Shown here: positions 14,498 to 57,819 of the stretch, one piece after another | How positions within the stretch are numbered: position 1 is the stretch's first letter | Layout: every line of letters starts with the position of its first letter | Source of the DNA: Oscillospiraceae bacterium | GTDB taxonomy: Bacteria; Bacillota; Clostridia; Oscillospirales; Ruminococcaceae | Direction of reading: 5' to 3' | DNA length: 64,000 bases | NCBI GenBank assembly: GCA_017435045.1 | Contig: JAFSFT010000031.1 | Coordinates: 15,274 to 79,273 of the forward strand | Made by a program: the position numbers and the translations under genes | Notes under the pieces: model-generated | The model's input: the letters and a program-made list of their open reading frames with translations, nothing else | The model's database searches: none | What the model was told of the DNA's origin: nothing

Positions 14498-14507
14498 ACA
14501 AATGCAA

Positions 14508-14540
14508 AAAGGCTGTTCAGACGGACAGCCTTTTTTGTTT
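14508..14540 (+). terminator. Rho-independent terminator
   Basis: GGCTGT (14511-14516) / ACAGCC (14525-14530) followed by TTTTTT. Confidence 0.65.
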
Positions 14541-14561
14541 GCAGTTTCAGACAATTGCACA

Positions 14562-14600
14562 CAAAAGCAAAAAGACAGGGACGGCATTGCCGTCCCTGTC
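14562..14600 (-). terminator. Rho-independent terminator of the malQ operon (minus strand)
   Basis: On the minus strand: GACAGGGACGG-caatg-CCGTCCCTGTC followed by TTTTTGCTTTTG. Confidence 0.7.
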
Positions 14601-14642
14601 TTTCGGTTTAACCCCACAAAAGTAAATTTATGGAGAGGTTTT

Positions 14643-16127: not shown

Positions 16128-16157
16128 AAGATATCACATCCTTTTGATTTGAGATTA

Positions 16158-17252: not shown

Positions 17253-17268
17253 TTGAATTATCCTCCTG

Positions 17269-18279: not shown

Positions 18280-18282
18280 GGA

Positions 18283-19979: not shown

Positions 19980-20009
19980 AAAAACGCTCCTCTCAATGAA
20001 ATTTACTTT

Positions 20010-20051
20010 TATAAAAACAAACAGAGACAGCAAGGTGTCTTGCCGTCTCTG
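20010..20051 (-). terminator. Intra-operon hairpin/attenuating terminator after the SBP gene
   Basis: On the minus strand: CAGAGACGGCAA-gacacc-TTGCTGTCTCTG followed by TTTGTTTTT. Lies between the SBP stop (20113) and the permease start (19979). Confidence 0.6.
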
Positions 20052-20112
20052 CGATTTTTAAATTATTAATTTATTAGTAATTAAATTTGCCAGTAATAAC
20101 TTAATATTTTAA

Positions 20113-39805: not shown

Positions 39806-39823
39806 TTAACAGGCAAAGGAAAA

Positions 39824-39848
39824 GCGCCTTAAAGCTTTTTTAAGGCGC
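39824..39848 (+). other. Stem-loop between the giant gene and the cohesin-like gene (no 3' U-tract)
   Basis: GCGCCTTAA-agctttt-TTAAGGCGC. The downstream sequence is ggctcctgcc, so it is not a canonical terminator. Confidence 0.4.
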
Positions 39849-39890
39849 GGCTCCTGCCAAAACAGTTTTATAGTTTTTGAAAGGATAAGT

Positions 39891-41012: not shown

Positions 41013-41027
41013 TAAGGAGCTTATTAA

Positions 41028-42485
41028 GTGTCTGAAAAATTTTCAAGAAAAATAAGCTATAACACCTGGGACGAGGCCTTCAGAGGCCTCGCCCCGAAGG
41101 TGCGTCAGGAATCAGTGCGTGTTGCTGAGTATGCACAGGTGTTATATCTGCAGGCAGTAAAAAGTGATTTTTACTCAGAAAATGAACGGTGGCAGAACAG
41201 AATGCAGTCCCAGTATGGCGAGCTTGCCTTTAAATGCGGATTGTATCATCAGTTCGGCAAGGCATTTATGCCAACAGAGCTTCAGCTGTGGAGCAACAAC
41301 AAAACAGAGGAGCAGCAATCTGCGTACAAGCAGTACACAGTTGATGGTCCTGTGCTTGTTGAGCACCTTCACAGAAAAACTGCAAGAGTAAGAACATGGG
41401 GCAGACAGCAGCCAATCGAGGACAAGATAGAAAATATTCCAACCCTTATGATTATGGAAAGCTGTGCCATGCATATGGAGCGTTTTGACGGTACAGGTTA
41501 TCCTGAAGGCCTTTCTCTGTATGATGTAAGCCCTATCGGCTACATAGTTGGTCTTGCAAAGGAGTTTGACCGCCTTGTGTGCAGCACAAAGTCCGAAACT
41601 CCGTTTGAAGATACCTTTGAAACTCTTACAGGCACATTAAATCAGTTTCCGCCAGAGCTTATTGATTGTCTTAAAAAAGTTAAATCCCAATATGAGGAGA
41701 TTTACAAAAAATACATTCAGTATTCCCGCACTTTGCCTGCAACAATTCCGCTTGTAGACAAAAGGGAAGACAGACCAATGGGGCTTACACTTACCCCAAT
41801 GTTAAGCACAAAAACACAGAAACCTGTATATTATATGGCAGATATATGGTTTGGCACCGAAATTATGAAAGTTCAGGAAGACCTGCCAAGCAACAATCTG
41901 GCATCTGTGTTTAAAAGAACAGGCATCTACCCTCAGCTTTGCACATATTTTATGTACGAAGCCTGCGACACAGTGCTCCGCATGGAGAACTGCCAGCTCA
42001 GTACAGAGGGTGTAATTCTCAACATTCTTCCTGAATTTTACTCACTGACCAACCAGATGGAATTGTTCGACAAGCTTTTTGCCGACCAACCGATTGACAA
42101 AAAGCACTTTATGCTTACAGTTCCGGAAAATGCGGTTATAAACGCAACAAAATCCACATTGGAAAACATCAGACGATATATGCGCCACGGCGTAAATATT
42201 GTGCTTAAAGATTATAACCCTGAAAGATTTTCAGTAGAAAAGCTTACCGAAATCGGCTTTAAATATGTAATTCCGTCAAAGGATCTGTACGGCACAGAAT
42301 ATCTTGCCAGAACAATTCCTATGCTGGAACGCCACAACATTAAGCTTATAGCTGCAGGTGTGGACGAAGCCGACAAGGTTGAATGGTTAAAAGAACACAA
42401 CTTTATCTGTTACGGCGGCCCTGCAGCAGGTGTTGCGGTAACAGAAGACAGCTTAATCCGTGAATGTCTTCTCAGCGAAGACTAA
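41028..42485 (+). CDS. Cytoplasmic protein with degenerate HD-GYP and degenerate EAL-like domains (putative c-di-GMP sensor)
   Basis: GTG start 7 nt after aaggag. LYHQFGK occupies the HD position (HQ at 41247-41252). AMHMERFDGTGYPEGL is the HHExxDGxGYP block with the first H changed to M. The C-terminal ~240 aa has EAL-fold spacing but reads KDYNPERFS instead of DDFGTGYS and IAAGVDEAD instead of AEGVE. Confidence 0.65.
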   Translation: MSEKFSRKISYNTWDEAFRGLAPKVRQESVRVAEYAQVLYLQAVKSDFYSENERWQNRMQSQYGELAFKCGLYHQFGKAFMPTELQLWSNNKTEEQQSAYKQYTVDGPVLVEHLHRKTARVRTWGRQQPIEDKIENIPTLMIMESCAMHMERFDGTGYPEGLSLYDVSPIGYIVGLAKEFDRLVCSTKSETPFEDTFETLTGTLNQFPPELIDCLKKVKSQYEEIYKKYIQYSRTLPATIPLVDKREDRPMGLTLTPMLSTKTQKPVYYMADIWFGTEIMKVQEDLPSNNLASVFKRTGIYPQLCTYFMYEACDTVLRMENCQLSTEGVILNILPEFYSLTNQMELFDKLFADQPIDKKHFMLTVPENAVINATKSTLENIRRYMRHGVNIVLKDYNPERFSVEKLTEIGFKYVIPSKDLYGTEYLARTIPMLERHNIKLIAAGVDEADKVEWLKEHNFICYGGPAAGVAVTEDSLIRECLLSED

Positions 42486-42495
42486 ATGAGAAAAG

Positions 42496-43620
42496 ATGAA
42501 AAAGAACAGCGAACCAAACAACACAAAACCCGAAGACAAGCTTAAACAGCAGCGGACACCTTTAAAGAAAAAACGTGCCGGTGTTGTTCTGTCACGCCAT
42601 CAGGTAAAGGAAATTAAAGCGGGGCGTAAAAAGCTTCGTAAAGAGCTTAAGAAGGCGGGCATAAAAAGCAAAAAGGACTTTGAGGTTACAGCGGCAAGCC
42701 TTGGTCTGTATTTTGACAAGCCAAAGGGCAGCCTGTTCTGGCTGCTGCTCAAGGGCAAAGCCCTGTGGGCACTGCTTGGTGCTGCGGCACTGTTTCTGTC
42801 GGTTCTGTTCCTTTTCTCTCTCCTCGAACAGATGAGAGGTCACTTTACCATCAACCTCAGTGAAGAGATGCTTAACAAAGGTTTTATCTTAAGCGAAACC
42901 GAGGATTTCTCAAACCCTGTAACGGTGCTTTACTGCGAGCCAAAAACCAACGTGGCGGCAACCTCCATATCCCATATCCCTACAGATGTTATGGATCATC
43001 AGGGTATGTATGATGACGACACAGTCTTTGCCTACAGCTTCTTTATGAAGTACGAGGGCGAGGAAACAGGCCATTACCGATATGATATAAAGGTTAACTC
43101 TGAATATCTTGACGTAAGCAAGGCCTGCTGGGTAATGGTTTTTGCAGACGGCGAAATGTCCTTCTATGCCGAAGAAGGCGCAGACGGCCTGCCGGAAAGC
43201 ATACCTGCACAGGACGATAACAGCCGCGGTTATCCGGAAGCATATTTTATGGATTATGCAAAAAATCCGGCCGACCAGTATGAAATTATCAAAGAAATCG
43301 GCAACGCAAAATATTATCGTCTTATACCAAAGCCTTTCAATGACGAAAGACGCGTTACAAGACAGGACGGTATGGCCCTTAACGACCAGGAATATCACAA
43401 ATACACAGTGGTAATCTGGCTGGAGGGTGACGACCCTGAATGTGTAAACGATATTATCGGCGGACATCTCGGTTTACAGATGAACTTTGCACTCCTCGGC
43501 GAAGAGGAAGAAGAGGACTTCGGCCTCAGCAACGAGGGCCTGCTTGATAACCTTGGTCAGTACTGGGTTAAATTTATAGAAGACCTTGAAAGTCTGTTTG
43601 GCGGATTGAAATACGACTAA
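42496..43620 (+). CDS. Family member A: type-II-anchored TasA-like-motif protein with a Lys-rich cytoplasmic tail
   Basis: 374 aa. Tail KKKRAGVV..KAGRKKLRKELKKAGIKSKK. TM ALWALLGAAALFLSVLFLFSLL. The ectodomain ends YTVVIWLEGDDPECVNDIIGGHLGLQMNFALLG, followed by EEEEEDFG. Starts 10 nt after the preceding stop. Confidence 0.6.
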   Translation: MKKNSEPNNTKPEDKLKQQRTPLKKKRAGVVLSRHQVKEIKAGRKKLRKELKKAGIKSKKDFEVTAASLGLYFDKPKGSLFWLLLKGKALWALLGAAALFLSVLFLFSLLEQMRGHFTINLSEEMLNKGFILSETEDFSNPVTVLYCEPKTNVAATSISHIPTDVMDHQGMYDDDTVFAYSFFMKYEGEETGHYRYDIKVNSEYLDVSKACWVMVFADGEMSFYAEEGADGLPESIPAQDDNSRGYPEAYFMDYAKNPADQYEIIKEIGNAKYYRLIPKPFNDERRVTRQDGMALNDQEYHKYTVVIWLEGDDPECVNDIIGGHLGLQMNFALLGEEEEEDFGLSNEGLLDNLGQYWVKFIEDLESLFGGLKYD

Positions 43621-43733
43621 ACTTAAACTTGGCATAAATTGTGCTTTGTTACAGCACTCACAGGGAGGGCTGGCACTGCACATTTATAAATAAATTTTTT
43701 AATCTTTAAAAAATAAGAAAGAAGGAGATTGCA

Positions 43734-45806
43734 ATGAACAACAGAAAAAAGCAGCTTAATTCTATTAAGAAAAAGATGATGGCTGCAACATCTATGTTAT
43801 TGGTAGCATCTATTATGATGGTTTCATCCACATACGCTTGGTTTACACTGTCAACTGCACCAGAAGTTACAGGTATTTCCACAACAGTAGGCGCTAACGG
43901 TAACCTTGAAATCGCATTGGCTAACCCACTTGGTGACCCATCCACAGTTACATCAGGCGTTGGCGATTCCACAGCAAGCGGTAAAGTAGTTACAGCTTCC
44001 AACCTTACTTGGGGTAACCTTGTAGACCTTGGCGATGCAAGCTACGGTCTTAAAGACATCGTTCTCCAGCCTGCAGCACTCAGCGCAGAAGAGGATGCAT
44101 TTACACATGCTATGGTAGTTAAATCCAACATCCTTTCCACACCTGAATACGGTGCAGACGGCAGAGTATCCGCTCTTGTAGACAAATCCACAACAGCGTC
44201 CTTTGATGCTCTGACAGGCAAATGGGTAACAGGTACAACAGAAAACCCAGGTTACGGTGTAAGAGCAGTTGGTCTGCTTTCCGGCCAGAGCGAAACAACT
44301 GTTGCATTCCGTGAAGCACGTGCACAGCTTTCTCAGCAGGCACAGAGTGCTAAAAACTCTGCAAGTGCTGCTTTGGTTGCAAACGGCGACACACTTGGTA
44401 ACGTTATCATCAAAAAAGCTCTCGACGGCGACGCAGCAAGCTTTACAGAAGAAGAACTTGATGCTCTTGGCGAAATGATCGGTGGTCTTGAACACACAAT
44501 GACATACATCGACAAAGCTATCCAGTACGGTGCTCTTGGCCGTGCAGCAAGTGCTGAATTTACAGATACTGTAAAATACGAAGCAATCAAAGCTGCAATT
44601 GCATCCACAGAAACACCTGCAACAGCAGAAAGCATCCTCAAAATCTTCTACGGCACAGTAGCTAATGATGCAGTTACACCTGCAGCTTCTGTTCCAACAG
44701 ATAAAACAGGCGATGTACTTATCGACACATACAACAAATACCTTGCAACAGTAGCTGCTATTGACGTAGCTAACGGTAAATACGAAACAGCTTCAGAAGC
44801 AGGCAACTACTCCTGGGAAGCTATTTCCCCAGTTCTCAACGCACTTGTTGTTTACAACAATGTAACAGTTAACGGCCTTACAGTTGACGATGTTAAAGCT
44901 AACATCAGCGCACTTGTAAACTCTGCTCTTAAAGGCGGTATCAAAGTTACAATGCCAACAGGCTCCGGTGTTATCGCTGACGTTGCTGACCTTGCAGGCG
45001 ACTACTCTGCAGGTATCACACTCAGAAACATCGAATATGCAGGTGCAACTGTAGAAGAACTTCCAGCTACAATGAACACAGCATCCACAGTTGACCCAGA
45101 ACACATCGAAAAAGTTTCTCAGTTCATCCTTTCCAAAGGTGCTATGACTTCCGGTACAGAAGGCGGCGACACATCTACATTTACAGATGCTTACGCTTAC
45201 ATCATCGACCTGTTCTTCAGAACAAACGTTGCAGGCTCTAACCTCCTGCTCCAGACAGAAGCTGTAGACCGTGTATACTCTGACCAGACAGAAGGTGCAA
45301 CACAGGGTAAAGGCAGCTCCATGATTTTCACAACAGAAAATACAGAAGCATTCTCTGTTCCACAGATGAAACAGCTTATGAACTGCATCAAACTTGTATT
45401 TGTTGACGAAGACAATGCAATCCTTGCAAAAGGTATGCTCGACGTTGCTTCCGCAACAGACACAGTTGAAGGCACAACAGGTACTGTTGAAGCAAAAATC
45501 AACCTTTACACAGAAACAACAGTTGACAATGTAACAACTGTAACAAAACTTGAAGGTACAGATGCTAAACTTGCAGCTCTTACACAGAACGAAGCTAAGA
45601 TGGTTTCTGTAATTGTTTACCTCGACGGTGCAAACGTTGACAACTCCATGGTTGCTAACGCTGCAACATCCATGACAGGTATGCTCAACCTCCAGTTTGC
45701 AAGCGATGCACAGCTTGTTCCAATGGAAAACAGCCAGATCAGAGACCTTCCTACAGGTGAAGAAGCAGGCGACAACACAACAGAAGGCGAAGGCGCAGGT
45801 GCATAA
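43734..45806 (+). CDS. Family member B (690 aa): candidate major fibre subunit with a TasA/SipW-type signal motif
   Basis: N-terminus KKKMMAATSMLLVASIMMVSSTYAWFTLSTAPEVTGISTTVGANGNLEIAL (TYAWF at 43830-43844). C-terminal VIVYLDGANVDNSMVANAATSMTGMLNLQFASDAQ. Codon usage is as biased as pheST and the SBP gene. RBS aaggag. Confidence 0.7.
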   Translation: MNNRKKQLNSIKKKMMAATSMLLVASIMMVSSTYAWFTLSTAPEVTGISTTVGANGNLEIALANPLGDPSTVTSGVGDSTASGKVVTASNLTWGNLVDLGDASYGLKDIVLQPAALSAEEDAFTHAMVVKSNILSTPEYGADGRVSALVDKSTTASFDALTGKWVTGTTENPGYGVRAVGLLSGQSETTVAFREARAQLSQQAQSAKNSASAALVANGDTLGNVIIKKALDGDAASFTEEELDALGEMIGGLEHTMTYIDKAIQYGALGRAASAEFTDTVKYEAIKAAIASTETPATAESILKIFYGTVANDAVTPAASVPTDKTGDVLIDTYNKYLATVAAIDVANGKYETASEAGNYSWEAISPVLNALVVYNNVTVNGLTVDDVKANISALVNSALKGGIKVTMPTGSGVIADVADLAGDYSAGITLRNIEYAGATVEELPATMNTASTVDPEHIEKVSQFILSKGAMTSGTEGGDTSTFTDAYAYIIDLFFRTNVAGSNLLLQTEAVDRVYSDQTEGATQGKGSSMIFTTENTEAFSVPQMKQLMNCIKLVFVDEDNAILAKGMLDVASATDTVEGTTGTVEAKINLYTETTVDNVTTVTKLEGTDAKLAALTQNEAKMVSVIVYLDGANVDNSMVANAATSMTGMLNLQFASDAQLVPMENSQIRDLPTGEEAGDNTTEGEGAGA

Positions 45807-45864
45807 TCGTCTAACTGTTTAAGTGCGATTTTGTTATCAATAACAAAAACTTACATATCTTATA

Positions 45865-45888
45865 TCGGGGCAGTGCCAACTGCCCCGA
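45865..45888 (+). other. GC-rich stem-loop after member B (no U-tract)
   Basis: TCGGGGCAG-tgccaa-CTGCCCCGA followed by ctaagataaaaaaa. Confidence 0.45.
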
Positions 45889-45928
45889 CTAAGATAAAAA
45901 AATTTAATAACGGGAGGAAATGTAAACA

Positions 45929-46915
45929 TTGAAAGTTTCACAGTATAAAAACAAAAAACGCTTTCAGATTGTTAAAGTTTTATATGTGACAATTGTCCTT
46001 CTTGCATTGACTACCGTTGCAACTTATACCTGGTTCAATTTAAGTACAAGACCATCCATCAACGATATGTCCATCTATATCAACAGCGGTGTCGGTCTGG
46101 AACTTTCCCTCGATAAAAACAGCGAGGAATGGTCATCCCAGATAGATTTCCGCGAACTGGAGATGGAAAACACCCCACTCGTACCAATCACTTATTCCCA
46201 GGCAGACAACAGCTTTTACACAGTTGTCCACGGTGCAGACGGCAGAATTGCAAGTGTAGACTATAAAATTCAGCCATCGCCAATACCAAAAAGTCTGGAA
46301 AATAACGGTTATTACCTCAAGGTTTCCTTTTTTGGCAGAACAGACGAGGATATAAAGGTTTATCTCTCTCCTGCAGTGGAACTGGAAAGAGGCACAGTTG
46401 GGGCGGGCACATGGCTTATCGGTGCACCTACATGGGATGGCGAAACTGTCAGCCACAAAAACGGCGGCGGCGGTGCCGAATACGCAATGCGTGTTGGCAT
46501 CAACATTACCTATCTTAACGAACTGGGCAACAGTACAGGCAATTCTGTCTTTTATATGTACGAGCCTAACTACGACGGACATCTTGACGGCTCCACAGGC
46601 TATGTTGAGACAAAGTCTGTAAACGGAGACCCGCTTATAAACGAGCAGTTTCTTATAAAACAGACCAAATCCACCTGGCGTGATGCCGACCTTGTGCAGA
46701 AAAATGTTATTATCAGCGACCTTGGCACCTTTGACAAGGAACCGTTGCTCTTTGAAATTGACGAGGGCGAAATGGTGCAGATAGAGCTTTATTTCTGGCT
46801 GGAAGGTCAGGATATCGACTGCGGCAACCTGCTTAACGAACAGTGTATGATTATGTCAAACATTCAGTTCCGTGCAGAAACAGAGGGCAGCAGCGAACTG
46901 CGTCCTATCTATTGA
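45929..46915 (+). CDS. Family member C (328 aa), TasA/SipW-type signal motif
   Basis: TTG start after gggagg. VLYVTIVLLALTTVATYTWFNLSTRPSINDMSIYINSGVGLELSL. HGADGRIASV parallels YGADGRVSAL of member B. C-terminal IELYFWLEGQDIDCGNLLNEQCMIMSNIQFRAE. Confidence 0.65.
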   Translation: MKVSQYKNKKRFQIVKVLYVTIVLLALTTVATYTWFNLSTRPSINDMSIYINSGVGLELSLDKNSEEWSSQIDFRELEMENTPLVPITYSQADNSFYTVVHGADGRIASVDYKIQPSPIPKSLENNGYYLKVSFFGRTDEDIKVYLSPAVELERGTVGAGTWLIGAPTWDGETVSHKNGGGGAEYAMRVGINITYLNELGNSTGNSVFYMYEPNYDGHLDGSTGYVETKSVNGDPLINEQFLIKQTKSTWRDADLVQKNVIISDLGTFDKEPLLFEIDEGEMVQIELYFWLEGQDIDCGNLLNEQCMIMSNIQFRAETEGSSELRPIY

Positions 46916-46965
46916 TGTTGCTGCTTTTACAGCAGACAGATTGTTATGTAATTTTTATAAATTGC

Positions 46966-47011
46966 ATACCAATCAAAGAACATAAAGCTTTTTGTGTTCT
47001 TTGATTGGTAT
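46966..47011 (+). other. Strong 17-bp stem-loop upstream of the first SipW gene
   Basis: ATACCAATCAAAGAACA (46966-46982) / TGTTCTTTGATTGGTAT (46995-47011). The T-run lies in the loop, not 3' of the stem. TATAAT follows immediately at 47011-47016. Confidence 0.5.
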
Positions 47012-47047
47012 ATAATGACCAAAAATATGTTTTCTTAGGAGGCGCTA

Positions 47048-47935
47048 ATGAAACTGAATAAATTTAACAAAAAAGAAAAACAACAGTTGCGGCAGGCTGC
47101 AGCGGGCGGCAATGTTGCAGAAAATGCCAACGGCGAAGTTATTGTTGTTGAAGAAGAAAAAGGAAGTATCTTAAACACAATTGTTAACGTCTTCCTTGTA
47201 GTTGCTATTGTAATAGCAGTTGTATGTACATATGTGTCATTTGTATCTACATCGGGCAGTGGTGTGCCAAGTATCCTTGGTATAAGACCATTCTCCATCC
47301 AGACAGAATCCATGTATCCTACATTCCTGCCTGGCGACCTTATCATCGATACAGCAGTTGACGACACAAGCGAGCTTGAGGTTGGCGATATCATCACATA
47401 CTGGACAATCATCAACGGCGAACGTGTACTCAACACCCATAGAATTTCAGCTATATATGACGGCGGCGGATACCTCATCTTTGCCACACAGGGTGATAAC
47501 AACCAGTCTGCCGACGCACTTACCGTTCACGAATCGGAGGTTGTAGGTAAGTATAAATTCAGGATACAGGGGTTAGGTAAAGTCTTTGACTATCTGCAGA
47601 CAAGCACAGGCTTCCTTATCGTTGTAGTTGTTCCTGTATTTATCTTCTTTATCTTCCACCTTATCAAGTTCTTCCAGGTGCTCTTTGAATATCAGAACAT
47701 CAAGAACAGAATCGTTTACGAACAGGAAAGAGGCAATGCAGAGGAACTTATTGCTGAACAGAAACGTCAGCAGGAAGAACTTAACCGTCTGCGTGAAGAA
47801 CAGAAAAACAAAGAAAAACAGGAGCTGGAAGAAAAACTGCGTGCTCAGCTTAAAGCTGAAATCCTCGCAGATATGCTCAAGGAAAAAGAAGCTGCTGCAC
47901 CTGCAGAAGCTGCACAAAACGTTGAGGAAGTATAA
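47048..47935 (+). CDS. Signal peptidase I, archaeal/ER (SipW) type, copy 1, with a C-terminal TM and coiled-coil tail
   Basis: 295 aa. Catalytic blocks FSIQTESMYPTFLPGDLII, NTHRISAI and ATQGDNN; compare B. subtilis SipW SGSMEP / THRI / TKGDNN (from memory). Second TM FLIVVVVPVFIFFIFHLIKFF, then EQKRQQEELNRLREEQKNKEKQELEEKLRAQLKAE. Confidence 0.8.
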   Translation: MKLNKFNKKEKQQLRQAAAGGNVAENANGEVIVVEEEKGSILNTIVNVFLVVAIVIAVVCTYVSFVSTSGSGVPSILGIRPFSIQTESMYPTFLPGDLIIDTAVDDTSELEVGDIITYWTIINGERVLNTHRISAIYDGGGYLIFATQGDNNQSADALTVHESEVVGKYKFRIQGLGKVFDYLQTSTGFLIVVVVPVFIFFIFHLIKFFQVLFEYQNIKNRIVYEQERGNAEELIAEQKRQQEELNRLREEQKNKEKQELEEKLRAQLKAEILADMLKEKEAAAPAEAAQNVEEV

Positions 47936-49557
47936 TGGAAGGGTTTTTCAGATATTTCTATCAGGATATTGGCAGAGTGTTCAAGGCATTTCTGGATATG
48001 ATAATGTCCTTTTTCACATTCCTTAACTATCTGCTCAATTTCCCTATGCGAATGGAGATAATCGAAAGCTACTCCGAAGACTTTTCCACAAAAGAATGGA
48101 TAATGCTTTTGATTGCCAACATTCTTTTGGTAGTAATCATCGTAGGCGTGCTTATTCTTATAGGAAAAATCTTTAAAAAGATTTTCCGTTTCCGTGTTCC
48201 GGTTAAAAAATACGACGAGCTTGTAAAGCAGGTTAAGGTGCTGCAGACAGACCTTATCCGTGCCAACTACGAAAAGGATAAGCTGCTTGCCATGAAGGTT
48301 GCCGAGCTGGGTCTTGACCCTGACAAGGAAACAACCGACAAGCTGCTTGAAAGCCTTTACGGTCAGGACGGCAATCTTGCCGAAGGCGTAGAAGAAAACG
48401 GAGAAGAAAAGACAGAGGAAAATCAGGTTTTCGAAACAAACCGCAACACCTTCAATTCTCCTGTTGTTGATCCGTCTACAAGCCGTTTCTTCCGTCTTAC
48501 CGAGGTTGACAACTACTACAAAACACAGTATGTTGCACCGGAATACGAGGAGATGGATCTGGAAGAATTCTGTAACCGCTTCCGTCTCTTTGCAGCAAGC
48601 AAGCTTAAGCTTTACTACGATATTTCTATCATCAGATTCTTTGTTGCATCCATGGGTGCAGCAAGAATTATCATCCTGCAGGGTATTTCCGGTACAGGTA
48701 AAACAAGTTTGCCTTACGCATTCGGTAAATTTGTACAGAAGGACACAACAGTTGTTTCCGTACAGCCTGCATGGAGAGAAAGAACCGAGCTTTACGGTTA
48801 TTTCAACGAATTTACAAAAAGATATACAGAAACAGACTTTTTGAAAGCAGTTTACGAAAGTAACTTCTACAAGGATCCGCATATTATAATCCTGGACGAA
48901 ATGAACATCGCCCGTGTTGAATACTACTTTGCGGAAATGCTTTCAATTCTGGAAATGCCGCTTCAGTCCGAATGGAATATCGACATTGTTACAGCGGTAT
49001 GGGATAACGACCCATGTCTTATCGACCAGGGTAAGGTACGCATCAACAACAACCTCTGGTTTGTTGGTACAATCAACAACGACGACTCCACATTTGCTGT
49101 AGCCGACAAAGTTTACGACCGTGCTATCCCTATCGACCTTGACAGCCGTGCCGAAGCATTTGAGTGCGAAGAATGTGACCCTGTACACGTTAACGTGGAG
49201 ATGCTCAACCGCCTCTTTGACGAAGCAAAGGCAAAATATCCTGTAAGTCAGGATATTCTTGACAAGCTGGACGAAGTTAACGCCTATCTTATCAGCGTAT
49301 TCCGTCTTGCTTTCGGTAACCGTATTATGAAACAGATACGCGACTATGTGCCTTGCTACATTGCCTGCGGCGGCACAGAAATTGAAGCTGTCGACTTTAT
49401 CGTTGCCAAAAAGGTTTTGCGTAAGTTTGAATCCTTAAGCCTTGGCTTTATGAAGGATGACCTTACAAAATTCTCTGCATACCTTGACAAGGTATTCGGC
49501 AAAAACCAGATGAAAATCTGTAAAGAATATATAGAATTACTCAAGAAAAATAACTAA
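47935..49557 (+). CDS. Membrane-anchored McrB-family (AAA_5) AAA+ NTPase
   Basis: The ATG overlaps the SipW stop (TAATG, 47933-47937). TM WIMLLIANILLVVIIVGVLILIG. Walker A GISGTGKTS. Walker B/McrB block IIILDEMNIARVEYYFAEMLSILE. FVGTINNDDSTFAVADKVYDRAIPIDL parallels the McrB GTMNTADRS...D.ALRRRF block. Confidence 0.7.
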   Translation: MEGFFRYFYQDIGRVFKAFLDMIMSFFTFLNYLLNFPMRMEIIESYSEDFSTKEWIMLLIANILLVVIIVGVLILIGKIFKKIFRFRVPVKKYDELVKQVKVLQTDLIRANYEKDKLLAMKVAELGLDPDKETTDKLLESLYGQDGNLAEGVEENGEEKTEENQVFETNRNTFNSPVVDPSTSRFFRLTEVDNYYKTQYVAPEYEEMDLEEFCNRFRLFAASKLKLYYDISIIRFFVASMGAARIIILQGISGTGKTSLPYAFGKFVQKDTTVVSVQPAWRERTELYGYFNEFTKRYTETDFLKAVYESNFYKDPHIIILDEMNIARVEYYFAEMLSILEMPLQSEWNIDIVTAVWDNDPCLIDQGKVRINNNLWFVGTINNDDSTFAVADKVYDRAIPIDLDSRAEAFECEECDPVHVNVEMLNRLFDEAKAKYPVSQDILDKLDEVNAYLISVFRLAFGNRIMKQIRDYVPCYIACGGTEIEAVDFIVAKKVLRKFESLSLGFMKDDLTKFSAYLDKVFGKNQMKICKEYIELLKKNN

Positions 49558-49571
49558 GGTGTAAAAGGACT

Positions 49572-51323
49572 ATGGCAGAAAAGCAGATAAAAAAGAATAC
49601 TACTAAAAAAAGTAGAAAAAACCTTTCTACCATAGACCCTATATACCGTAAATTTTCTAAAAATGTTGTGCGCACACTTATGAGCACAGATTTTTACGAA
49701 TATTTTATGGATGCCATCGCTTCCAGCAAAAGGCAGATGCAGTTTTCCAACAAAAAGGTGGAAAAAATCATCGACCTGCGCTGGATAGAGGCTCTGGAAG
49801 CCTCGCTGGATCCTTTCCAGAACATCATCACCAACCCTCGTAATATTATCCGCGAAGAAGAAATTATCGTTAACGTTGCGCACGCAAAAAAAGGCGGCTC
49901 CGACGTTGTAAGACACCTGGCACAGCATTCCTCCTATGTAGAGGATTTCAACTACGAAACAGGGGATGTAAGGCCATCCAAGCTTATGCAGAAAATCCGA
50001 GACGACAGCTCGGTTCTGTACGAAAACAGAATTGTTTACACAACTCTGGAGGCTGCATACCACTTTGTAACCATCCGATATGACGCTCTTATGGCAAATA
50101 TGAGCGAGGAGATGGGTGCAAAGCTCAAGATGGAAACCGACATACAGTTTGCCAAGGAAAATGTTCATTTTGATATGTTTATGCATATCAAAGAAAATGA
50201 CGACCCGCTTACAACAGACGCAAAAAACAGGGAAACCTTTGAGAGAATTGCAAGAATTCAGCGTCTGCTGGCATACTATATGTCCATGCCTGCGGCACAG
50301 ATGTGGTCCCGCGAACAGCGTGTAAGAGGTGTAATCAACAAGACAAACGTCCTTAAAAAACACCCGGACTACAAAAAAATTGTTGCTTTGTACGAATTTC
50401 TGCGTCTGTATGACGAGGTTGGCTATGTAATCAAAATCAAGGAACAGAACCCTGAAATCAACGAAACCTTCGAGAATGATATCTATCACAATTTAATGTT
50501 CAACTACATTATTCTGAAAGGCTATCTCGAAGACGAGGAAGACAGGGAAATTCCTGTAAAAGGCAAAAACAGAAAAAGAACCCTCAAGCCAAAGTTTATT
50601 CACCAAATTATCGAGGAGATTGTGGAAGACTACAATCTTCCTGATGTGGAAGTGCGTAAAATCCTTATAGAAGAGCTTACAAAAGAACAGCTTAAATATG
50701 AGGAGGAACAGGAAAGACAGCACATTATAGAAGAAACTGAACGGGCACGCAAAAAAGCCGAAGAAGAGCTTATGTTGGAAAAAGCCCGTAAAAAGGCAGA
50801 GGCAAAACGTCAGCGTGAAGCAGAACTTAAACGCAGACGTGAAGAAAAAGAAGCCTTTGAAACAAAGAAAAAGCAGGAAAAACTGCTCCAGATGGCAGAG
50901 GACAGAAGAAGAACAAAGCCAATTCTGGACGAATACGAAAATTTTATGTCCAATCTGCTTGAAAAAACTGTTCTCAGAAGACAGATTCAGGAAGAGATAG
51001 ACAAACGTCAGCCTCAGCAGGATTACGAAGACTTTGTAAGACTTATTGAGGAAGAAGAACAGAGAAAGTTTGAAGAACAGGAAAGACTGGCAAGAGAGCG
51101 TTACGAGGCAAAGCAGCGAAAGGCAGAAGAAAAAAGACTTCAGCTTCAGCAGCAGCGTCTTGAAGAAAAACGCAGACAGATGGAGGCAGATGCACTTGTT
51201 GTGGCACCTATCAGAGAGGAACTTGCCGCCTTTATGCAGTTCTGTAAGCTTCAGATAGAAAAAAGAGGATATGGTGTTCCTGCGGAAGACCAATCCGAGG
51301 GAGACAACTCTCCACAGCAGTAA
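49572..51323 (+). CDS. Partner of the AAA+ NTPase: ~330-aa globular domain followed by ~250 aa of highly charged coiled coil
   Basis: 583 aa. Starts 14 nt after the ATPase stop. C-terminal half reads EELTKEQLKYEEEQERQHIIEETERARKKAEEELMLEKARKKAEAKRQREAELKRRREEKEAFETKKKQEK...ERLARERYEAKQRKAEEKRLQLQQQRLEEKRRQ. No TM, no signal peptide, and no nuclease motif that I can see. Confidence 0.6.
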   Translation: MAEKQIKKNTTKKSRKNLSTIDPIYRKFSKNVVRTLMSTDFYEYFMDAIASSKRQMQFSNKKVEKIIDLRWIEALEASLDPFQNIITNPRNIIREEEIIVNVAHAKKGGSDVVRHLAQHSSYVEDFNYETGDVRPSKLMQKIRDDSSVLYENRIVYTTLEAAYHFVTIRYDALMANMSEEMGAKLKMETDIQFAKENVHFDMFMHIKENDDPLTTDAKNRETFERIARIQRLLAYYMSMPAAQMWSREQRVRGVINKTNVLKKHPDYKKIVALYEFLRLYDEVGYVIKIKEQNPEINETFENDIYHNLMFNYIILKGYLEDEEDREIPVKGKNRKRTLKPKFIHQIIEEIVEDYNLPDVEVRKILIEELTKEQLKYEEEQERQHIIEETERARKKAEEELMLEKARKKAEAKRQREAELKRRREEKEAFETKKKQEKLLQMAEDRRRTKPILDEYENFMSNLLEKTVLRRQIQEEIDKRQPQQDYEDFVRLIEEEEQRKFEEQERLARERYEAKQRKAEEKRLQLQQQRLEEKRRQMEADALVVAPIREELAAFMQFCKLQIEKRGYGVPAEDQSEGDNSPQQ

Positions 51324-51385
51324 AAGCAGTGTGCAGCAAATGCAGAGGCACTGTTTAAAAGAGATTTTTAAGGAGATATTCAACT

Positions 51386-52771
51386 ATGACAGGACCAGCG
51401 GCAAAGCTCATATCCATAGGGATAATGTTGGTTGTTTCACTGTGTCTTGTTACAGTAACCTCCTACGCATGGCTGACAATGTCAGACAACCCTGTGGCAA
51501 CAGGCATTCAGGTTTCGGTTGGCGGCAGTAACACAATAAAGCTGGCGGCTGACATATCAACTGTTACTGAAGACGGCCAGGTGCTGCACTATCCTGCATT
51601 TTTCAGCGAAACACTCACCCTTAATGAAGAAGCAGACTATCTTCCTTTAAGCCCTGTATCTACAGCAGACGGCGTAAACTGGTATTTTCCAAAGGAAATA
51701 AAAAAGGAAAATGCAGCATATACCCCGGGTATTGAAATCCGCGAAGAAAGCTCTCTCCAGAAAGACGAATTCGTGCACGATGACAAGCTGGAATATGCAA
51801 ATATAGATGCCGGTCAGGACACTGAAGTTAAAGGAAGCTATATGTATTTTGATTTCTGGGTGGTTTCACCGCAGGAAAACTGCGAGCTCAGGGTAAGTGT
51901 TGGTCAGGACGGCAGCGGCAGCTATGTGATAAATCTTCCTACTGTAGTAAAAACAGAAGATTCCTATCAGCTGGACATCTCAAACAACGAACCATCCACA
52001 TATGCAAGGGTTGGTTTCCTTGTAAACTCTGATGTGCAGACAAATGACTCAATGAACGAATATGTACAGCAGCCTCAGTATATGGATATATACAAAAAGC
52101 TGCGTGGCATATATCAGGAAAAAGGCGAAAGTGCCTCACAGTACAACCGCCTTACAAGCTATACAATATACGAACCTAACGGCGACAGCCATCCGTCAGC
52201 CGCAAGCTCTGATGTATATACAAACATCGGGCTTAAAAATATGGCTCTTAAAGATGGCGAATATGTTATCACCAGCCCTATTTCCAAGGTTAACGGTGCT
52301 CATATAGCAACAGAGGCACAAAGCTACCTTGCTGTGCAGAAAACAAGCCGCTGGGCAATGAGCGACGAAAGCGAAAGCTTTTTGCAGCAGCACTTTGAAG
52401 CATTTTTGCTTCAGCTTGGGGATAAAGCTGACAAGTACACAGAAGAAGAACTTATGAACCGTTTTTACGAAAACTGGATTCAGCAGAACTGTGCATACTA
52501 CCTTAATCTTGGTCAGTTTATACCTAATTCTTCACTGCTTTACAGTCAGGCAAAGGGAGATCTGGGTATTTACAGATATGTAAAGGAAGAATCTCTTGCA
52601 AAGCTTGGCACAAGCGGTGCAACAGACGATGCGGTGATAGCATATCTTGAAAAAAACGTTCCTCAGAGAATAAGAATGTATGTTTACCTTGAGGGACAGG
52701 ATGTGGATTGCATAAGCAATGCAGATGTTAACAGTCTTATTGTTCATCTGGAACTTGCGGGGAGCAACTAA
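51386..52771 (+). CDS. Family member D (461 aa), TasA/SipW-type signal motif
   Basis: KLISIGIMLVVSLCLVTVTSYAWLTMSDNPVATGIQVSVGGSNTIKLA. YTIYEPNGDSH parallels FYMYEPNYDGH of member C. C-terminal IRMYVYLEGQDVDCISNADVNSLIVHLELAGSN. Confidence 0.65.
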   Translation: MTGPAAKLISIGIMLVVSLCLVTVTSYAWLTMSDNPVATGIQVSVGGSNTIKLAADISTVTEDGQVLHYPAFFSETLTLNEEADYLPLSPVSTADGVNWYFPKEIKKENAAYTPGIEIREESSLQKDEFVHDDKLEYANIDAGQDTEVKGSYMYFDFWVVSPQENCELRVSVGQDGSGSYVINLPTVVKTEDSYQLDISNNEPSTYARVGFLVNSDVQTNDSMNEYVQQPQYMDIYKKLRGIYQEKGESASQYNRLTSYTIYEPNGDSHPSAASSDVYTNIGLKNMALKDGEYVITSPISKVNGAHIATEAQSYLAVQKTSRWAMSDESESFLQQHFEAFLLQLGDKADKYTEEELMNRFYENWIQQNCAYYLNLGQFIPNSSLLYSQAKGDLGIYRYVKEESLAKLGTSGATDDAVIAYLEKNVPQRIRMYVYLEGQDVDCISNADVNSLIVHLELAGSN

Positions 52772-52776
52772 AAACA

Positions 52777-53487
52777 ATGACAAAGAAAAAAAACACAAAT
52801 AAATCAATTTCCGGCAAAGCGGTTTCGGTAATGTTTGTTGTTTCTTTTCTGCTTTGTATAACCATAGTGGTGCAGGTACTGTTTAAAGGTTATGCCAGCT
52901 TGGGCGGTTACAGCCTGTTCAGAGTTGTAACCGGCTCTATGGAACCGACAATACCTACAGGCGCATTGCTGTTGTGTGACTCTATGGATATAGAGGATAT
53001 AGTTGAAGGTGACATTGTGTGCTTCCGTTCACCGGAAAGATATATGAAAGGAAGCGTAATTACACACCGTGTATACGATGTGAAAAAGGAAAGCAACGGC
53101 GATATACACCTTTACACCAAGGGAGATGCCAATATTTCCATAGATGGTTATATAGTAAAAGAAGAACACTTTATCGGCAGAGTAAGCTGGTATACAAGAA
53201 AAGACGGATTTTTTATCAACTTTATAGGTCTGCTTTCAAGCAGATACGGCTTTTTGTCCTGTATAGTATTTCCTGTACTTATTGTCAGCAGTATCATTAT
53301 AAGGGATTGCACAAAGAGTATTATGAAGGACCTTGAGCAAGCAAATGCAGAGCTTGATGAAAGAGAAAAGGAATATGTTCCGCAGCAGGATATTTCTGCA
53401 GAGGAATATAAGGAAATGTATGACAGAATCAAAGCCGAATTGTTAGGAGAATTGGCAAGTGAACACAATAGCAAGCTGGAAAAATAG
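52777..53487 (+). CDS. Signal peptidase I, archaeal/ER (SipW) type, copy 2
   Basis: 236 aa. FRVVTGSMEPTIPTGALLL, ITHRVYDV, YTKGDANISIDG. Second TM FLSCIVFPVLIVSSIIIRD, then the charged tail EQANAELDEREKEYVPQQDISAEEYKEMYDRIKAEL. Confidence 0.85.
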   Translation: MTKKKNTNKSISGKAVSVMFVVSFLLCITIVVQVLFKGYASLGGYSLFRVVTGSMEPTIPTGALLLCDSMDIEDIVEGDIVCFRSPERYMKGSVITHRVYDVKKESNGDIHLYTKGDANISIDGYIVKEEHFIGRVSWYTRKDGFFINFIGLLSSRYGFLSCIVFPVLIVSSIIIRDCTKSIMKDLEQANAELDEREKEYVPQQDISAEEYKEMYDRIKAELLGELASEHNSKLEK

Positions 53488-55024
53488 AATAACAGACCGA
53501 TTCAATGGCCTTTCCGATATACAGAAAAAGCTGTATGTCAAAGGTCTCTTTGTGCTGTTTGTGTTTTTCCTTACAATTGTGCTGATTTTTGCTGCAACTG
53601 CTGCATGGTACAACAATATAGCACAGGTTGAAGAACTTGCTTTTGAAATTGATGCCTGGGGTGTAGACAGCACAATAACAATTGAAGACCAGTCTGTTGA
53701 AAAGGCTGCTCCGGGGGATATCGGTACAATTCCGTACAAAATTGACAACGAGGCAGACAGTCTTGTAAATGTTCAGATAAAAGCTGCCAAAAAATATCTG
53801 CCTGAATTTATGCAGAAAAGAATATATTTTTATGTTGACAAAAAGGTAGAAGTTAACGGCGAAACCCTTGAAAAGGCATACATACACGATGACAATGCAT
53901 ACTCCCACGTGCTTCTGGGCGGCCAGAATGTAGATAACACAGGCGATGTTGCATCGGACGGCAAAATCAAGTGGGAATGGGTATATGACCTGCTGGGCTA
54001 TTATGTTGTTATCGAAACAGACGATGATGACATCAGTAAGGAAACAGCATATATCCGACCTGTGCAGTACACCTACGAAGATGCTAAATATGACAACGAC
54101 ACAGGTGCACTTACAAGCATAAAAATAGACGGCAAAGAGGTTACAGCAGAGGACTATATCAAAAACCTGCTTGATACCGACGGCTTTGAAACAGAAGAGT
54201 TCAAAGAGCTGGAAGAAATCAAAACAATACTCAAATTCAAGGATATTTCCGAAGAAATAACAGAAAAGACATACTACGAGGTTTATACCGAAGATGATTA
54301 CGGTGTATACCTGTACATCTGCGATTTCCAGGAAATTGCCGTGAACAATCGTGTTGATACAGACATAGGCAACAAGGAGGAAGCATACCTCCTCGGTGAC
54401 GAAAACTATACAGTTATCCAGATAAGCTGCGGTCAGGCACATGAATATGTGGTTGAAATGGCAGATGCTGCCCAGCTTTATTCAATTATGTCTGATAAAG
54501 AGGCGTATACAAAGTTCCTCACAGACAATGAGCTGGAAGATGTAAAAAGCAATGTTATTTTCCAGCTTACACAGGATATGAATCTGAACACAGTTACAAT
54601 GTTTGACGGTGCAGACTTCATAATCGACCTTAATGGATTTACCCTTTCCTGTGCAGGCCCTGCAAGTGCAGAGCAGGCACAGCACGCAATGTTTACATTG
54701 AAGGAAAAATCCTCACTCAGAATTTACAACGGTAACATTCATCCGGGCAATTACACCCCGTTTGCGGTTACAAACAGCACACTGGTGGCAAAGGAAATCA
54801 CCTTTGACCACAAGACATCAACAGTAAGGGCAGACAATACTGACCAGAAACGCGGCAGCAACATACAGCTTGTGCGCTGTGTATGGGCAGAAGATATGCC
54901 ACAGGATGTTGTGACAATAGAGGAAATAAATGACGAGGGCGAAACAGTCCAGTCCTTTATATGTATAAAAGAAGCAGAATCACAGACAGAAACACAGGCA
55001 GATGAGGATACATCTGCAGAATAG
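53459..55024 (+). CDS. Family member E (521 aa), TasA-like motif AAWYNN; contains an IDLNGxT module
   Basis: GTG start 8 nt after aggagaa, overlapping the SipW-2 3' end by 29 nt. LFVLFVFFLTIVLIFAATAAWYNNIAQVEELAFEIDAWGVD. IIDLNGFTLSCAG...LRIYNGNIHPGNY parallels the giant protein. KRGSNIQLVRCVWAED, then an acidic tail. Confidence 0.6.
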   Translation: MNTIASWKNRITDRFNGLSDIQKKLYVKGLFVLFVFFLTIVLIFAATAAWYNNIAQVEELAFEIDAWGVDSTITIEDQSVEKAAPGDIGTIPYKIDNEADSLVNVQIKAAKKYLPEFMQKRIYFYVDKKVEVNGETLEKAYIHDDNAYSHVLLGGQNVDNTGDVASDGKIKWEWVYDLLGYYVVIETDDDDISKETAYIRPVQYTYEDAKYDNDTGALTSIKIDGKEVTAEDYIKNLLDTDGFETEEFKELEEIKTILKFKDISEEITEKTYYEVYTEDDYGVYLYICDFQEIAVNNRVDTDIGNKEEAYLLGDENYTVIQISCGQAHEYVVEMADAAQLYSIMSDKEAYTKFLTDNELEDVKSNVIFQLTQDMNLNTVTMFDGADFIIDLNGFTLSCAGPASAEQAQHAMFTLKEKSSLRIYNGNIHPGNYTPFAVTNSTLVAKEITFDHKTSTVRADNTDQKRGSNIQLVRCVWAEDMPQDVVTIEEINDEGETVQSFICIKEAESQTETQADEDTSAE

Positions 55025-55032
55025 TAGAAAAG

Positions 55033-55779
55033 ATGAAAAATAGCAGGATAATCAGAAGAAACTTGTTATCTTTGATTGGTGTTTTCATTATGGTTCTCAC
55101 AATGCTCGCCGTTATGGGCGTTGCATGGGCAAGATTCAGCGAAGAAGACAAAAAGATAATGAGAATAGAGACATACCACGACAGACAGTGGTATATCTAC
55201 GGCGGCGACTACAGTGCAGGCGACGCCGATGAAATTCTGCCCGAAACGGTAATTGCCAACGAGGTATTACCGGGCGTTATCGAATGGAACGACAACGAAA
55301 GAAGAATTCGTTTCCATGTTACCAATGGCAAAAAGGCAGACAGCTACGGTAAAGAAGATTTCAGCTACTCAATTTGGGTGCTGGTTACAAATACATTAAA
55401 GCCTACCGACCTTACACTGATGCTGCAGTACTATGAGGGCGACACGGTCAAATCCATCACAGCGGAGCCGGAAAGGATAACCGAGGACAGCCAGCTGTAC
55501 AAGAGCATCGGGGATGGCTGGATTTACAAGTTCTATGTTGATGCCACAGTTACAGACACAACACAGAACAACACCCAAACCCAGACAGAGGTTACAGAGG
55601 GTACAGGCGACACAGGCACAGGCGATACTGCTCAGGGTACAACAACACCGGCAAGAGCAGAGTTTGTGGACACACTCAAGGGCGGACAGCTCTCTATGAA
55701 CACATACGATTTAAGTATCATCGGTCAGGCAGAGGCAGGCTTGCTTGAAATTGAAATTATAGAATATACACAGGAGTAA
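55033..55779 (+). CDS. Family member F (248 aa), TasA-like motif AWARF
   Basis: LLSLIGVFIMVLTMLAVMGVAWARFSEEDKK. Thr/Gly/Asp-rich stretch TQTQTEVTEGTGDTGTGDTAQGTTTP. C-terminal KGGQLSMNTYDLSIIGQAE. Confidence 0.6.
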   Translation: MKNSRIIRRNLLSLIGVFIMVLTMLAVMGVAWARFSEEDKKIMRIETYHDRQWYIYGGDYSAGDADEILPETVIANEVLPGVIEWNDNERRIRFHVTNGKKADSYGKEDFSYSIWVLVTNTLKPTDLTLMLQYYEGDTVKSITAEPERITEDSQLYKSIGDGWIYKFYVDATVTDTTQNNTQTQTEVTEGTGDTGTGDTAQGTTTPARAEFVDTLKGGQLSMNTYDLSIIGQAEAGLLEIEIIEYTQE

Positions 55780-55794
55780 AAGGGGGGAAAAGAA

Positions 55795-57801: not shown

Positions 57802-57819
57802 GAGGCTTTCAGCAGAATC

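Follow-up and report, generated by a model that had tools for sequence, protein, structure and literature searches.

In a 64,000-nucleotide (nt) stretch of contig JAFSFT010000031.1 from an Oscillospiraceae bacterium (GenBank assembly GCA_017435045.1; positions 15,274 to 79,273 of the forward strand; this whole stretch is hereinafter called the window, and positions are counted from its first letter), we analyzed a gene for a membrane-anchored McrB-like AAA+ nucleoside triphosphatase (NTPase), which is accompanied by a gene for a McrC-like partner and is embedded among genes for SipW-like signal peptidases and exported proteins. We consider it fairly probable that the two proteins of this pair make up the cytoplasmic-face NTPase component of a SipW-dependent system for exported or surface-fibre proteins. 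Directly supported are the assignment of the NTPase to its family, the intactness of its catalytic motifs, the predicted topology, the lack of a detectable nuclease and a linkage with SipW and exported protein genes that is conserved in both directions. Judging from its domain composition, the pair appears to be a McrBC-derived module that has lost the DNA-binding domain and, as far as can be detected, the nuclease as well.

By its sequence features, the pair belongs to the class that Bell et al. (eLife 2024) named CoCoPALM in a single paragraph, with the analysis deferred to a later paper; we found no such paper in the literature to mid-2026. Because the class was already named, and its association with signal peptidase genes noticed, in 2024, the first sighting is not new, and the value of the present work lies in detail and tests. 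Added here are two families of exported proteins, denoted p374 and p328, the long tails of the SipW-like peptidases, a ranking of the genes of the locus by conservation and a reverse co-occurrence test. A preliminary description of this DNA, made from the sequence alone, had taken McrB-type motors to be soluble as a rule and to be known from restriction and defence only, a view that is outdated given the work of Bell et al.

The McrB-like NTPase and its McrC-like partner

The genes of the pair and the features of the NTPase, all encoded on the + strand, are as follows (TM, transmembrane; AF2, AlphaFold2; pLDDT, predicted local distance difference test):

47935..49557, + strand: McrB-like AAA+ NTPase, membrane-anchored, 540 amino acids (open reading frame, ORF; Pfam AAA_5; PDB phmmer and hmmsearch; hhalign; PADLOC core match)
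48097..48165, + strand: TM segment, residues 55-77 (WIMLLIANILLVVIIVGVLILIG) (Kyte-Doolittle; AF2 helix 52-84)
48202..48306, + strand: juxtamembrane cytoplasmic helix, residues 90-124 (AF2 helix; heptad pattern weak)
48310..48444, + strand: acidic disordered linker, residues 126-170 (composition; pLDDT <50)
48682..48708, + strand: Walker A motif GISGTGKTS, residues 250-258 (read from translation; alignments)
48883..48906, + strand: Walker B motif IIILDEMN, residues 317-324 (read from translation; alignments)
49075..49089, + strand: N-N-D-D-S signature, residues 381-385, the N-x-D-(D/E)-S motif of the 'NxD' McrB clade (alignments)
49120..49122, + strand: R396, conserved, candidate arginine finger (alignments)
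49572..51323, + strand: McrC-like partner, 583 amino acids, 14 nt 3' of the NTPase gene (DUF2357, AF2, synteny)

A search of the PDB with the NTPase identified McrB of Escherichia coli as the sole AAA+ match, with an E-value of 0.0046 for the single sequence and 7e-4 for a profile of 33 sequences, and the Pfam AAA_5 domain was detected with 22.2 bits (cut-off 22). When a profile of 34 diverse relatives was compared with E. coli McrB using hhalign, the two aligned with 96.9% probability (E 1.6e-10) over 166 columns extending from Walker A to the arginine; N381-N-D-D is aligned with NTAD of E. coli McrB, and R396 falls inside RRR of its ALRRRF motif. The catalytic motifs are intact: GISGTGKTS is invariant in 33 orthologues and 34 more distant relatives, D321 and N324 of Walker B are invariant in the same proteins while L320 and E322 are conserved in at least 90% of them, and N381, D383 and R396 are invariant across both alignments. 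Of 150 representatives, one per 50%-identity cluster, 130 have the N-x-D-[D/E]-S signature; the D at position +2 never varies, and the residue at +3 is D in 100 proteins and E in 30. Bell et al. (eLife 2024) define a major branch of McrB by an NxD element with E or D as the usual next residue. The preliminary description had read this element as N-x-x-D; the family motif is instead N-x-D-(D/E), the 'NxD' variant, and the NNDD of the window protein is readable both ways.

We also considered the possibility that the NTPase belongs to the MoxR/RavA clade, a profile match to which the preliminary description had named among the observations that would speak against its reading. No sequence match to MoxR or RavA was found for the NTPase in the PDB, Pfam or NCBIfam, and no VWA domain was detected by Pfam among the locus proteins. 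Given that neither a sequence match nor a VWA partner was found and that RavA came up only in a low-confidence fold search, this identity was rejected. The core is McrB-like and not MoxR/RavA-like, an assignment for which we rely on sequence and profile evidence, the fold search being non-discriminating. The original McrB-family assignment is borne out by the PDB search, by the hhalign comparison and by the presence of a DUF2357/McrC-type partner.

The ATG of the NTPase gene shares one base with the stop codon of the upstream SipW-like ORF (47048-47935; TAATG at 47933-47937), as had been described, and is preceded at a distance of a few bases by a GAGGA Shine-Dalgarno-like motif (47925-47929). 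More than 100 database homologues of 526-547 amino acids cover 100% of the query; because they align full-length, the start codon and the N-terminus can be considered real. The hydropathy maximum of the protein (Kyte-Doolittle, 19-residue window) is 3.39 at residues 58-76. The TM segment is preceded by 21 residues with 5 D/E and 2 K/R and followed by 16 residues with 7 K/R, a charge distribution implying that the C-terminal side of the NTPase, with the catalytic domain, is cytoplasmic. The N-terminal helices of the AF2 model span residues 2-34, 36-45, 52-84 (containing the TM segment) and 90-124. In the last of these, residues 90-119 are the sole candidate for a heptad repeat, with an a/d score of 0.66 compared to 0.70 for the 95th percentile of shuffled sequences by what is a crude score. 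The helix at residues 90-124 is hence supported, and its heptad-like character is weakly supported. The linker at residues 126-170 contains 14 D/E versus 4 K/R and has pLDDT values below 50. Pfam detected no DNA-binding domain in the NTPase, where residues 1-170 consist of membrane-associated helices, the TM segment, a further helix and the acidic linker. The layout first reported for this 540-residue protein, an N-terminal TM segment, an acidic linker and an AAA+ core, is therefore in agreement with hydropathy, the AF2 model and the motifs, and the topology prediction that had been suggested yields a membrane anchor with the NTPase domain on the cytoplasmic side by charge distribution; of the 'heptad-like helix', the helix stands (AF2 90-124), and the heptad pattern does not rise above shuffled sequences.

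The partner (100% identical to IJO54_04215) consists of an alpha/beta N-terminal region at residues 1-350, which includes a DUF2357-like stretch at residues ~40-180, and of long E/K/R-rich helices at residues 360-568. The full-length protein yielded no Pfam match, and residues 40-180 matched DUF2357 with an E-value of 0.002. The domain was matched by 11 of 34 partner orthologues, and three orthologues in the range of 51-56% identity (P0139, P0140 and P0153) score 26-29 bits, above the gathering threshold of 23.3. In the AF2 model, the mixed alpha/beta part extends to about residue 350 and is followed by helices at 360-460, 462-477 and 485-568; residues 360-570 are 60% E/K/R/D/Q and form a charged helical region of about 210 amino acids with no clear heptad core. 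Searches with the partner in Pfam and PADLOC, and in the PDB by sequence and profile, revealed neither a nuclease nor any other effector domain, and the AF2 model contains only helices after residue 360. The PDB matches of the partner, for both the single sequence and the profile, were rejected as coiled-coil noise (SMC1A, Vipp1).

Linkage to SipW-like peptidases and exported proteins

A scan of one genome per species detected a relative of the NTPase in at least 591 species-level genomes, and gene linkage was counted over the best 80 of these at least 591 loci, with NTPase identities of 42-70%. These 80 loci come from Oscillospiraceae, Lachnospiraceae, Ruminococcus, Erysipelotrichaceae, Bacilli and one Acholeplasmatales metagenome-assembled genome (MAG), and the carriers include R. 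flavefaciens MC2020, Ruminococcus sp. FC2018, Eubacterium ruminantium FB3002 and Lachnospiraceae bacterium 10-1. A McrC-like gene is located directly 3' of the NTPase gene in 79 of the 80 loci, the exception being cut by a contig end, and 77 loci have a SipW-like gene as an immediate neighbour; such a gene is positioned 5' of the NTPase gene in 61 loci and after the partner gene in 31. Homologues of p374 are encoded in 64 loci and homologues of p328 in 44. The gap between the SipW-like and NTPase genes in other loci is 12-294 nt by our ORF calls, so that the overlap by one base is lineage-specific and adjacency is what is conserved; the coupling to SipW that had been read from the overlap is accordingly general as adjacency (77/80) and not as overlap.

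The neighbouring genes of the window on which the linkage analysis is based are the following:

47048..47935, + strand: SipW-like (archaeal/endoplasmic reticulum-type) signal peptidase I, copy 1 (SipW-1), 295 amino acids, two TM segments (TIGR02228, 88.8 bits)
52777..53487, + strand: SipW-like signal peptidase I, copy 2 (SipW-2), 236 amino acids (TIGR02228, 86.5 bits; Peptidase_S26, 25.1 bits)
42496..43620, + strand: p374, conserved bitopic membrane protein (alignment; present in 64/80 loci)
45929..46915, + strand: p328, exported protein (alignment; hhalign to p374)
43734..45806, + strand: exported paralogue, 690 amino acids, TYAWF-type N-terminus (translation; orthologues in syntenic loci)
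51386..52771, + strand: exported paralogue, 461 amino acids, SYAWL N-terminus, between the McrC-like gene and SipW-2 (translation; syntenic loci)
41028..42485, + strand: HD_5 (HD-GYP-type) and EAL protein, directly 5' of p374 (Pfam EAL 1.2e-13, HD_5 6.8e-11)

The linkage also holds in the reverse direction. A metagenome scan was seeded on the p374 family with the pattern W[LIV]EGxDP[DE]C and yielded 42 loci with enough flanking sequence, and the NTPase is present in 37 of these 42 informative p374 loci. Together with the homologue survey (77/80), this result upholds the view that the pair resides in a context of SipW and exported proteins rather than in defence islands. The same exported protein families almost always occur with the pair, and homologues located mainly in defence islands, which had been named as grounds against that view, were not seen in the loci examined.

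The genes of the locus are conserved to different degrees. Conservation was measured as the median identity to the window proteins, in 15 syntenic loci and in distant loci:

NTPase: 68% syntenic, 45% distant
SipW-1: 62% syntenic, 34% distant
McrC-like partner: 53% syntenic, 28% distant
p374: 46% syntenic, 26% distant
Other exported proteins: 27-42% syntenic; about 22-26%, or not detected, distant

Of these genes, that of the NTPase is conserved best. Strong constraint on a cytoplasmic enzyme next to rapidly evolving surface proteins is typical of core machinery and not of a defence gene.

The p374 protein has a basic cytoplasmic N-terminus of about 85 amino acids, one TM segment and an exported domain that ends with the motif W-x-E-G-x-D-P-x-C. 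Proteins of the p328 family carry a Y-x-W-F motif directly after the hydrophobic N-terminus (W and F are invariant, Y is present in at least 90%), which p374 does not have, and the C-terminal W-x-E-G-x-D-x-x-C motif is common to both families. The two families are homologous (hhalign probability 99%, E 5.9e-18). None of the exported proteins matched Peptidase_M73/TasA or TIGR04088 (SipW-cognate signal peptide), and a search of the PDB with the p328 family profile, in which TasA was sought, yielded no match. The PDB matches of p374, which were examined for TasA-likeness, are spurious, involving designed helical repeat proteins aligned with the N-terminal low-complexity and TM region.

Both SipW-like peptidases of the window score above the cut-off of the archaeal/endoplasmic reticulum-type signal peptidase I model (TIGR02228; 51.85 bits) and do not reach that of the strict Bacillus SipW equivalog model. 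A charged cytoplasmic tail follows the second TM segment, of 89 amino acids in SipW-1 (47660-47932) and 66 amino acids in SipW-2 (53287-53484). Such tails are found locus-wide; they are E/K/R-rich and unusually long, with a median of 70 amino acids and a length of at least 40 amino acids in 99 of 129 proteins. The genes at 33551-62136 are all co-directional, no convincing terminator on the + strand was found between genes in the scanned region 39000-58900, and the GC content is flat at 0.40-0.48, or 0.42-0.46 across the locus, with 0.42 for the NTPase/partner pair.

The HD_5/EAL gene occupies the same position in 10 of the 15 syntenic loci, and its domain composition makes its product a likely phosphodiesterase of cyclic di-GMP (c-di-GMP) that regulates the cluster. 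Three metagenomic loci (L111, L120 and L146) represent a variant in which genes of the p374 and p328 families occur with no SipW-like or McrBC-like gene in the available sequence, which covers ~10 kb to either side for L146 and, for L111 and L120, mainly ~10 kb of downstream sequence. In L146 (cluster at 9635-20639), genes for an HD_5 protein (6696-8897) and a PilZ protein (8955-9638) are located directly upstream, which points to c-di-GMP control of the p374/p328 family. In another metagenomic locus (L099:14847-18796), SipW and the NTPase are followed by a 792-residue protein of the p328 family instead of the McrC-like partner, and no McrC-like ORF was found in ~4.7 kb of downstream sequence.

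Three of the loci (L047, L069 and L070) come from MAGs labelled Bacteroidales, Muribaculaceae or Acholeplasmatales. Since the locus occurs elsewhere in Firmicutes only, the labels Bacteroidales and Muribaculaceae probably reflect faulty binning; the Acholeplasmatales case, if real, would mean that the module is also present in a wall-less lineage.

Related systems and possible roles of the pair

Bell et al. (eLife 2024) describe CoCoPALM as a GTPase fused to an FtsB-like TM and coiled-coil domain, with coiled coils in both the McrB and the McrC homologue. The pair analyzed here shares with this class an NxD McrB-like NTPase with an N-terminal TM segment and helix, a DUF2357 McrC homologue with a long helical extension, adjacent genes of the signal peptidase family and the occurrence in Bacillota; all four descriptors fit and none contradicts membership. 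It differs in that the FtsB homology of the N-terminus was not reproduced with Pfam and in that the 'coiled coils' of the partner extension and of the SipW tails look here like charged helices without a clear heptad core.

Compared with McrBC of E. coli (PDB 6HZ4, 6UT6), the pair retains Walker A, Walker B, the Asn-Asp signature, the arginine and a DUF2357 partner gene directly downstream. In the E. coli system, however, the N-terminal part of McrB is a DNA-binding domain, whereas the window protein has a TM segment and a helix in its place; the signature is N-x-x-D in E. coli and N-x-D-(D/E) here; the PD-(D/E)xK nuclease domain is undetected in the window partner, which contains instead the charged helical region of ~210 amino acids; and the neighbours of the pair are genes for SipW and exported proteins instead of restriction-modification genes. 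The NTPases CnuB of CoCoNuT (with CnuC) and those of the PADLOC candidate system PDC-M26 belong to the same NxD clade and show ~40% identity over residues ~180-540. They differ from the window protein in being soluble, with an N-terminus of ~400 amino acids that has no predicted TM segment (a coiled coil according to Bell et al.), and CoCoNuT is associated with nucleases (HEPN and others; Bell et al.), in contrast to the membrane anchor, the SipW neighbours and the lack of a detected nuclease here.

The NxD relatives form three architecture groups: proteins of 450-540 amino acids with 1-2 TM segments and a short helix, including the NTPase of the window; proteins of 550-740 amino acids with 4-5 TM segments; and soluble, CoCoNuT-like proteins of 700-870 amino acids, with N-terminal regions of ~400 amino acids. 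The sister clade with 4-5 TM segments (L085:10001-14359, L086:10001-14158 and L088:10001-13397) has the same N-x-D-(D/E)-S core and forms two-gene modules with a partner of 519-837 amino acids that belongs to no known family; the partner in L085 has a weak match to PADLOC PDC-S18 at the C-terminus. The neighbours of these modules are housekeeping genes (tRNA synthetases, rplI, thyA/folA, hydrogenase), which is neither a SipW nor a defence context. Given that the sister clade is not found beside SipW, the SipW linkage belongs to the clade with 1-2 TM segments.

The ATPases of type IV pili and type II secretion systems (PilB/GspE) resemble the pair by functional analogy only, in that a cytoplasmic NTPase, hexameric (by inference here), is located at the membrane and is accompanied by a signal or leader peptidase of its own and by a number of paralogous subunits whose N-terminal motifs are conserved. 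The NTPases belong to unrelated fold families (McrB-type AAA+ here, not PilB/GspE), the peptidase is the aspartic protease PilD there and a SipW-type signal peptidase I acting outside the membrane here, and no PilC-like platform is present in the window. The tapA-sipW-tasA operon of Bacillus and the sipW-bsa operon of Clostridium perfringens likewise contain a gene for a SipW-type peptidase among those for its presumed substrates, in which an aromatic motif comes after the hydrophobic N-terminus. Unlike the locus described here, these operons have no McrBC-like pair, and the exported proteins of the window show no sequence match to the TasA/camelysin Pfam models or to TasA in the PDB. In C. 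perfringens, proteins of a sipW operon require genes of a type IV pilus-like, NTPase-driven system for their secretion (PMC11580942), which is a precedent for NTPase-driven machinery aiding export across the Gram-positive wall.

The NTPase may act in assembly, extraction, retraction or gating. We propose a tentative model, to which we give somewhat less than even chances, in which a ring of the NTPase and a McrC-like shaft constitute the energising motor or platform of an uncharacterised class of machines for the assembly of surface fibres in Gram-positive bacteria, mechanically coupled via charged helical arms to the SipW peptidases and to a membrane-anchored base subunit. In the broader mechanism proposed for the pair as a component of the SipW-dependent system, of which this motor model is the more specific and less probable form, the NTPase would form, by analogy with McrB, a nucleotide-dependent hexameric ring that is held under the membrane by the TM segment and the juxtamembrane helix. 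The DUF2357 domain of the partner would plug the ring as McrC does and stimulate hydrolysis, and its charged arm (~210 amino acids) would point outward. The ring, the arm and the juxtamembrane helices could then touch the charged tails of both SipW-like peptidases and the basic N-terminus of p374, and hydrolysis would organise, gate or drive the cleavage of signal anchors, with the subunits that carry the W-F motif (p328, the 690- and 461-residue paralogues p690 and p461, the 1438-residue protein p1438 and others) handed over into a surface polymer. Because an HD-GYP/EAL gene is located upstream in the window and HD_5 and PilZ genes are located upstream in L146, the system is probably under c-di-GMP control.

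Several observations weigh against this model and against the assignment of the pair to a surface-fibre system. On the side of the NTPase, the fold search with the AF2 model retrieved MCM, RavA, McrB, dynein and BchI at similarly weak scores that do not separate the clades, and the nearest relatives outside the clade are predicted conflict systems (CoCoNuT and the PADLOC candidate PDC-M26). On the side of the partner, DUF2357 scores 17.8 bits in the window protein, under the gathering threshold, the family profile gave no alignment with E. coli McrC by hhalign, the fold search with the AF2 model, which is dominated by long helices, gave no match with E <0.1, and residues 183-350, an alpha/beta part modelled with moderate confidence, could be a degenerate or inactivated nuclease-like fold. 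Both AF2 models are mediocre, with pLDDT values of 63.5 for the NTPase and 69.1 for the partner. The exported proteins have no family match in Pfam, NCBIfam or the PDB, and the labels 'fibre' and 'TasA-like' derive from adjacency to SipW and from a motif resemblance. The SipW/TasA systems of Bacillus are not known to need an NTPase, so that an energy requirement is not obvious. Finally, five of the 42 p374 loci show neither the NTPase pair nor SipW in the available sequence; in two of these (L092 and L094) the visible flank is filled by large paralogues, and the other three are the loci of the variant cluster type. That the five lack SipW as well implies that the NTPase pair and SipW come and go together.

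The dispensability of an energy source for SipW/TasA assembly in Bacillus, which is established knowledge, would be readily accommodated if the McrBC-like pair performed no mechanical work and served as a nucleotide-dependent timer or checkpoint that switches SipW activity or relays an envelope or c-di-GMP signal. McrB hydrolysis is known to be strictly McrC-dependent and switch-like, the cytoplasmic SipW tails lend themselves to regulation, and the HD-GYP/EAL gene is conserved upstream of the cluster; in one variant locus (L146), HD_5 and PilZ genes are located upstream. We nevertheless regard this explanation as unlikely: the near-invariance of the catalytic residues and the extreme conservation of the core fit a turnover enzyme at least equally well, and neither the NTPase nor the partner showed a sensory or c-di-GMP-binding domain.

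A still smaller probability attaches to the pair being a CoCoNuT-like immune module, which might guard a fibre used as a phage receptor or cause abortive infection through the membrane. McrBC itself is a restriction system, the nearest relatives are NxD-clade McrB GTPases of predicted defence systems (CoCoNuT), and the core of the NTPase matches PADLOC PDC-M26A with an E-value of 1.4e-41 (query residues 225-341 to positions 314-431 of the 724-position profile). This match was rejected as evidence of defence, being a generic match to the core that is common to every clade member (120-148 bits, equal for all three architecture groups), with the partner matching neither PDC-M26B nor any other PADLOC profile; we found no literature on PDC-M26. 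Neither a nuclease nor an effector domain was found, no mobile-element or defence-island context was seen in the loci examined, and the pair is fixed beside SipW across several families. Moreover, the NTPase is the most conserved gene of a locus with flat GC content, unlike a patchy, fast-evolving defence gene, and the flat GC content and conserved synteny led us to reject a recent nested insertion. Most improbable of the explanations considered is a septal AAA+ protein with an FtsB-like anchor, associated with the envelope or with division, for which the adjacency to SipW would reflect shared regulation only. Bell et al. call the N-terminal region FtsB-like, and FtsB/DivIC likewise have a helix after a TM segment, but residues 1-143 have no Pfam match to DivIC/FtsB, even at E-values up to 1, the neighbourhood contains no division genes, and the gene order with SipW, p374 and p328 is tight and conserved.

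If the assignment of the pair to a SipW-dependent export system is correct, many abundant gut and rumen Firmicutes (the at least 591 species-level genomes) have put a motor known from DNA restriction to a new use at their membrane. It would serve surface proteins of no known family, amount to a principle of assembly or secretion that is new for Gram-positive surface structures, and point to adhesion or matrix genes in Ruminococcus, Lachnospiraceae and Oscillospiraceae. In the less probable motor model, it would also represent a further kind of fibre-assembly motor besides the ATPases of type IV pili and type II secretion systems, and a clear case of a restriction motor turned to protein export or assembly. 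The role is directly testable in cultured carriers, namely R. flavefaciens MC2020, E. ruminantium FB3002 and Lachnospiraceae bacterium 10-1.

Other genes of the cluster

Downstream of SipW-2, the cluster continues with further genes:

53459..62136, + strand: four more co-directional genes with hydrophobic N-termini, encoding proteins of 521, 248, 668 and 1438 amino acids (ORFs; partly conserved in syntenic loci)

No Pfam family was found for these four genes. The cluster is headed by a gene for a 2084-residue protein (33551-39805), in which residues 2001-2048 score 22.7 bits, versus a threshold of 22.9, as a type I dockerin, a borderline match that hints at cellulosome-type attachment. Another protein, of 373 amino acids, has a Sec-type signal peptide, a FIVAR domain and a C-terminal TM anchor, and shares with the 668-residue protein a module of ~105 amino acids (39999-40313 and 56818-57138, respectively; 43% identity, E 1e-22) that has no Pfam match.

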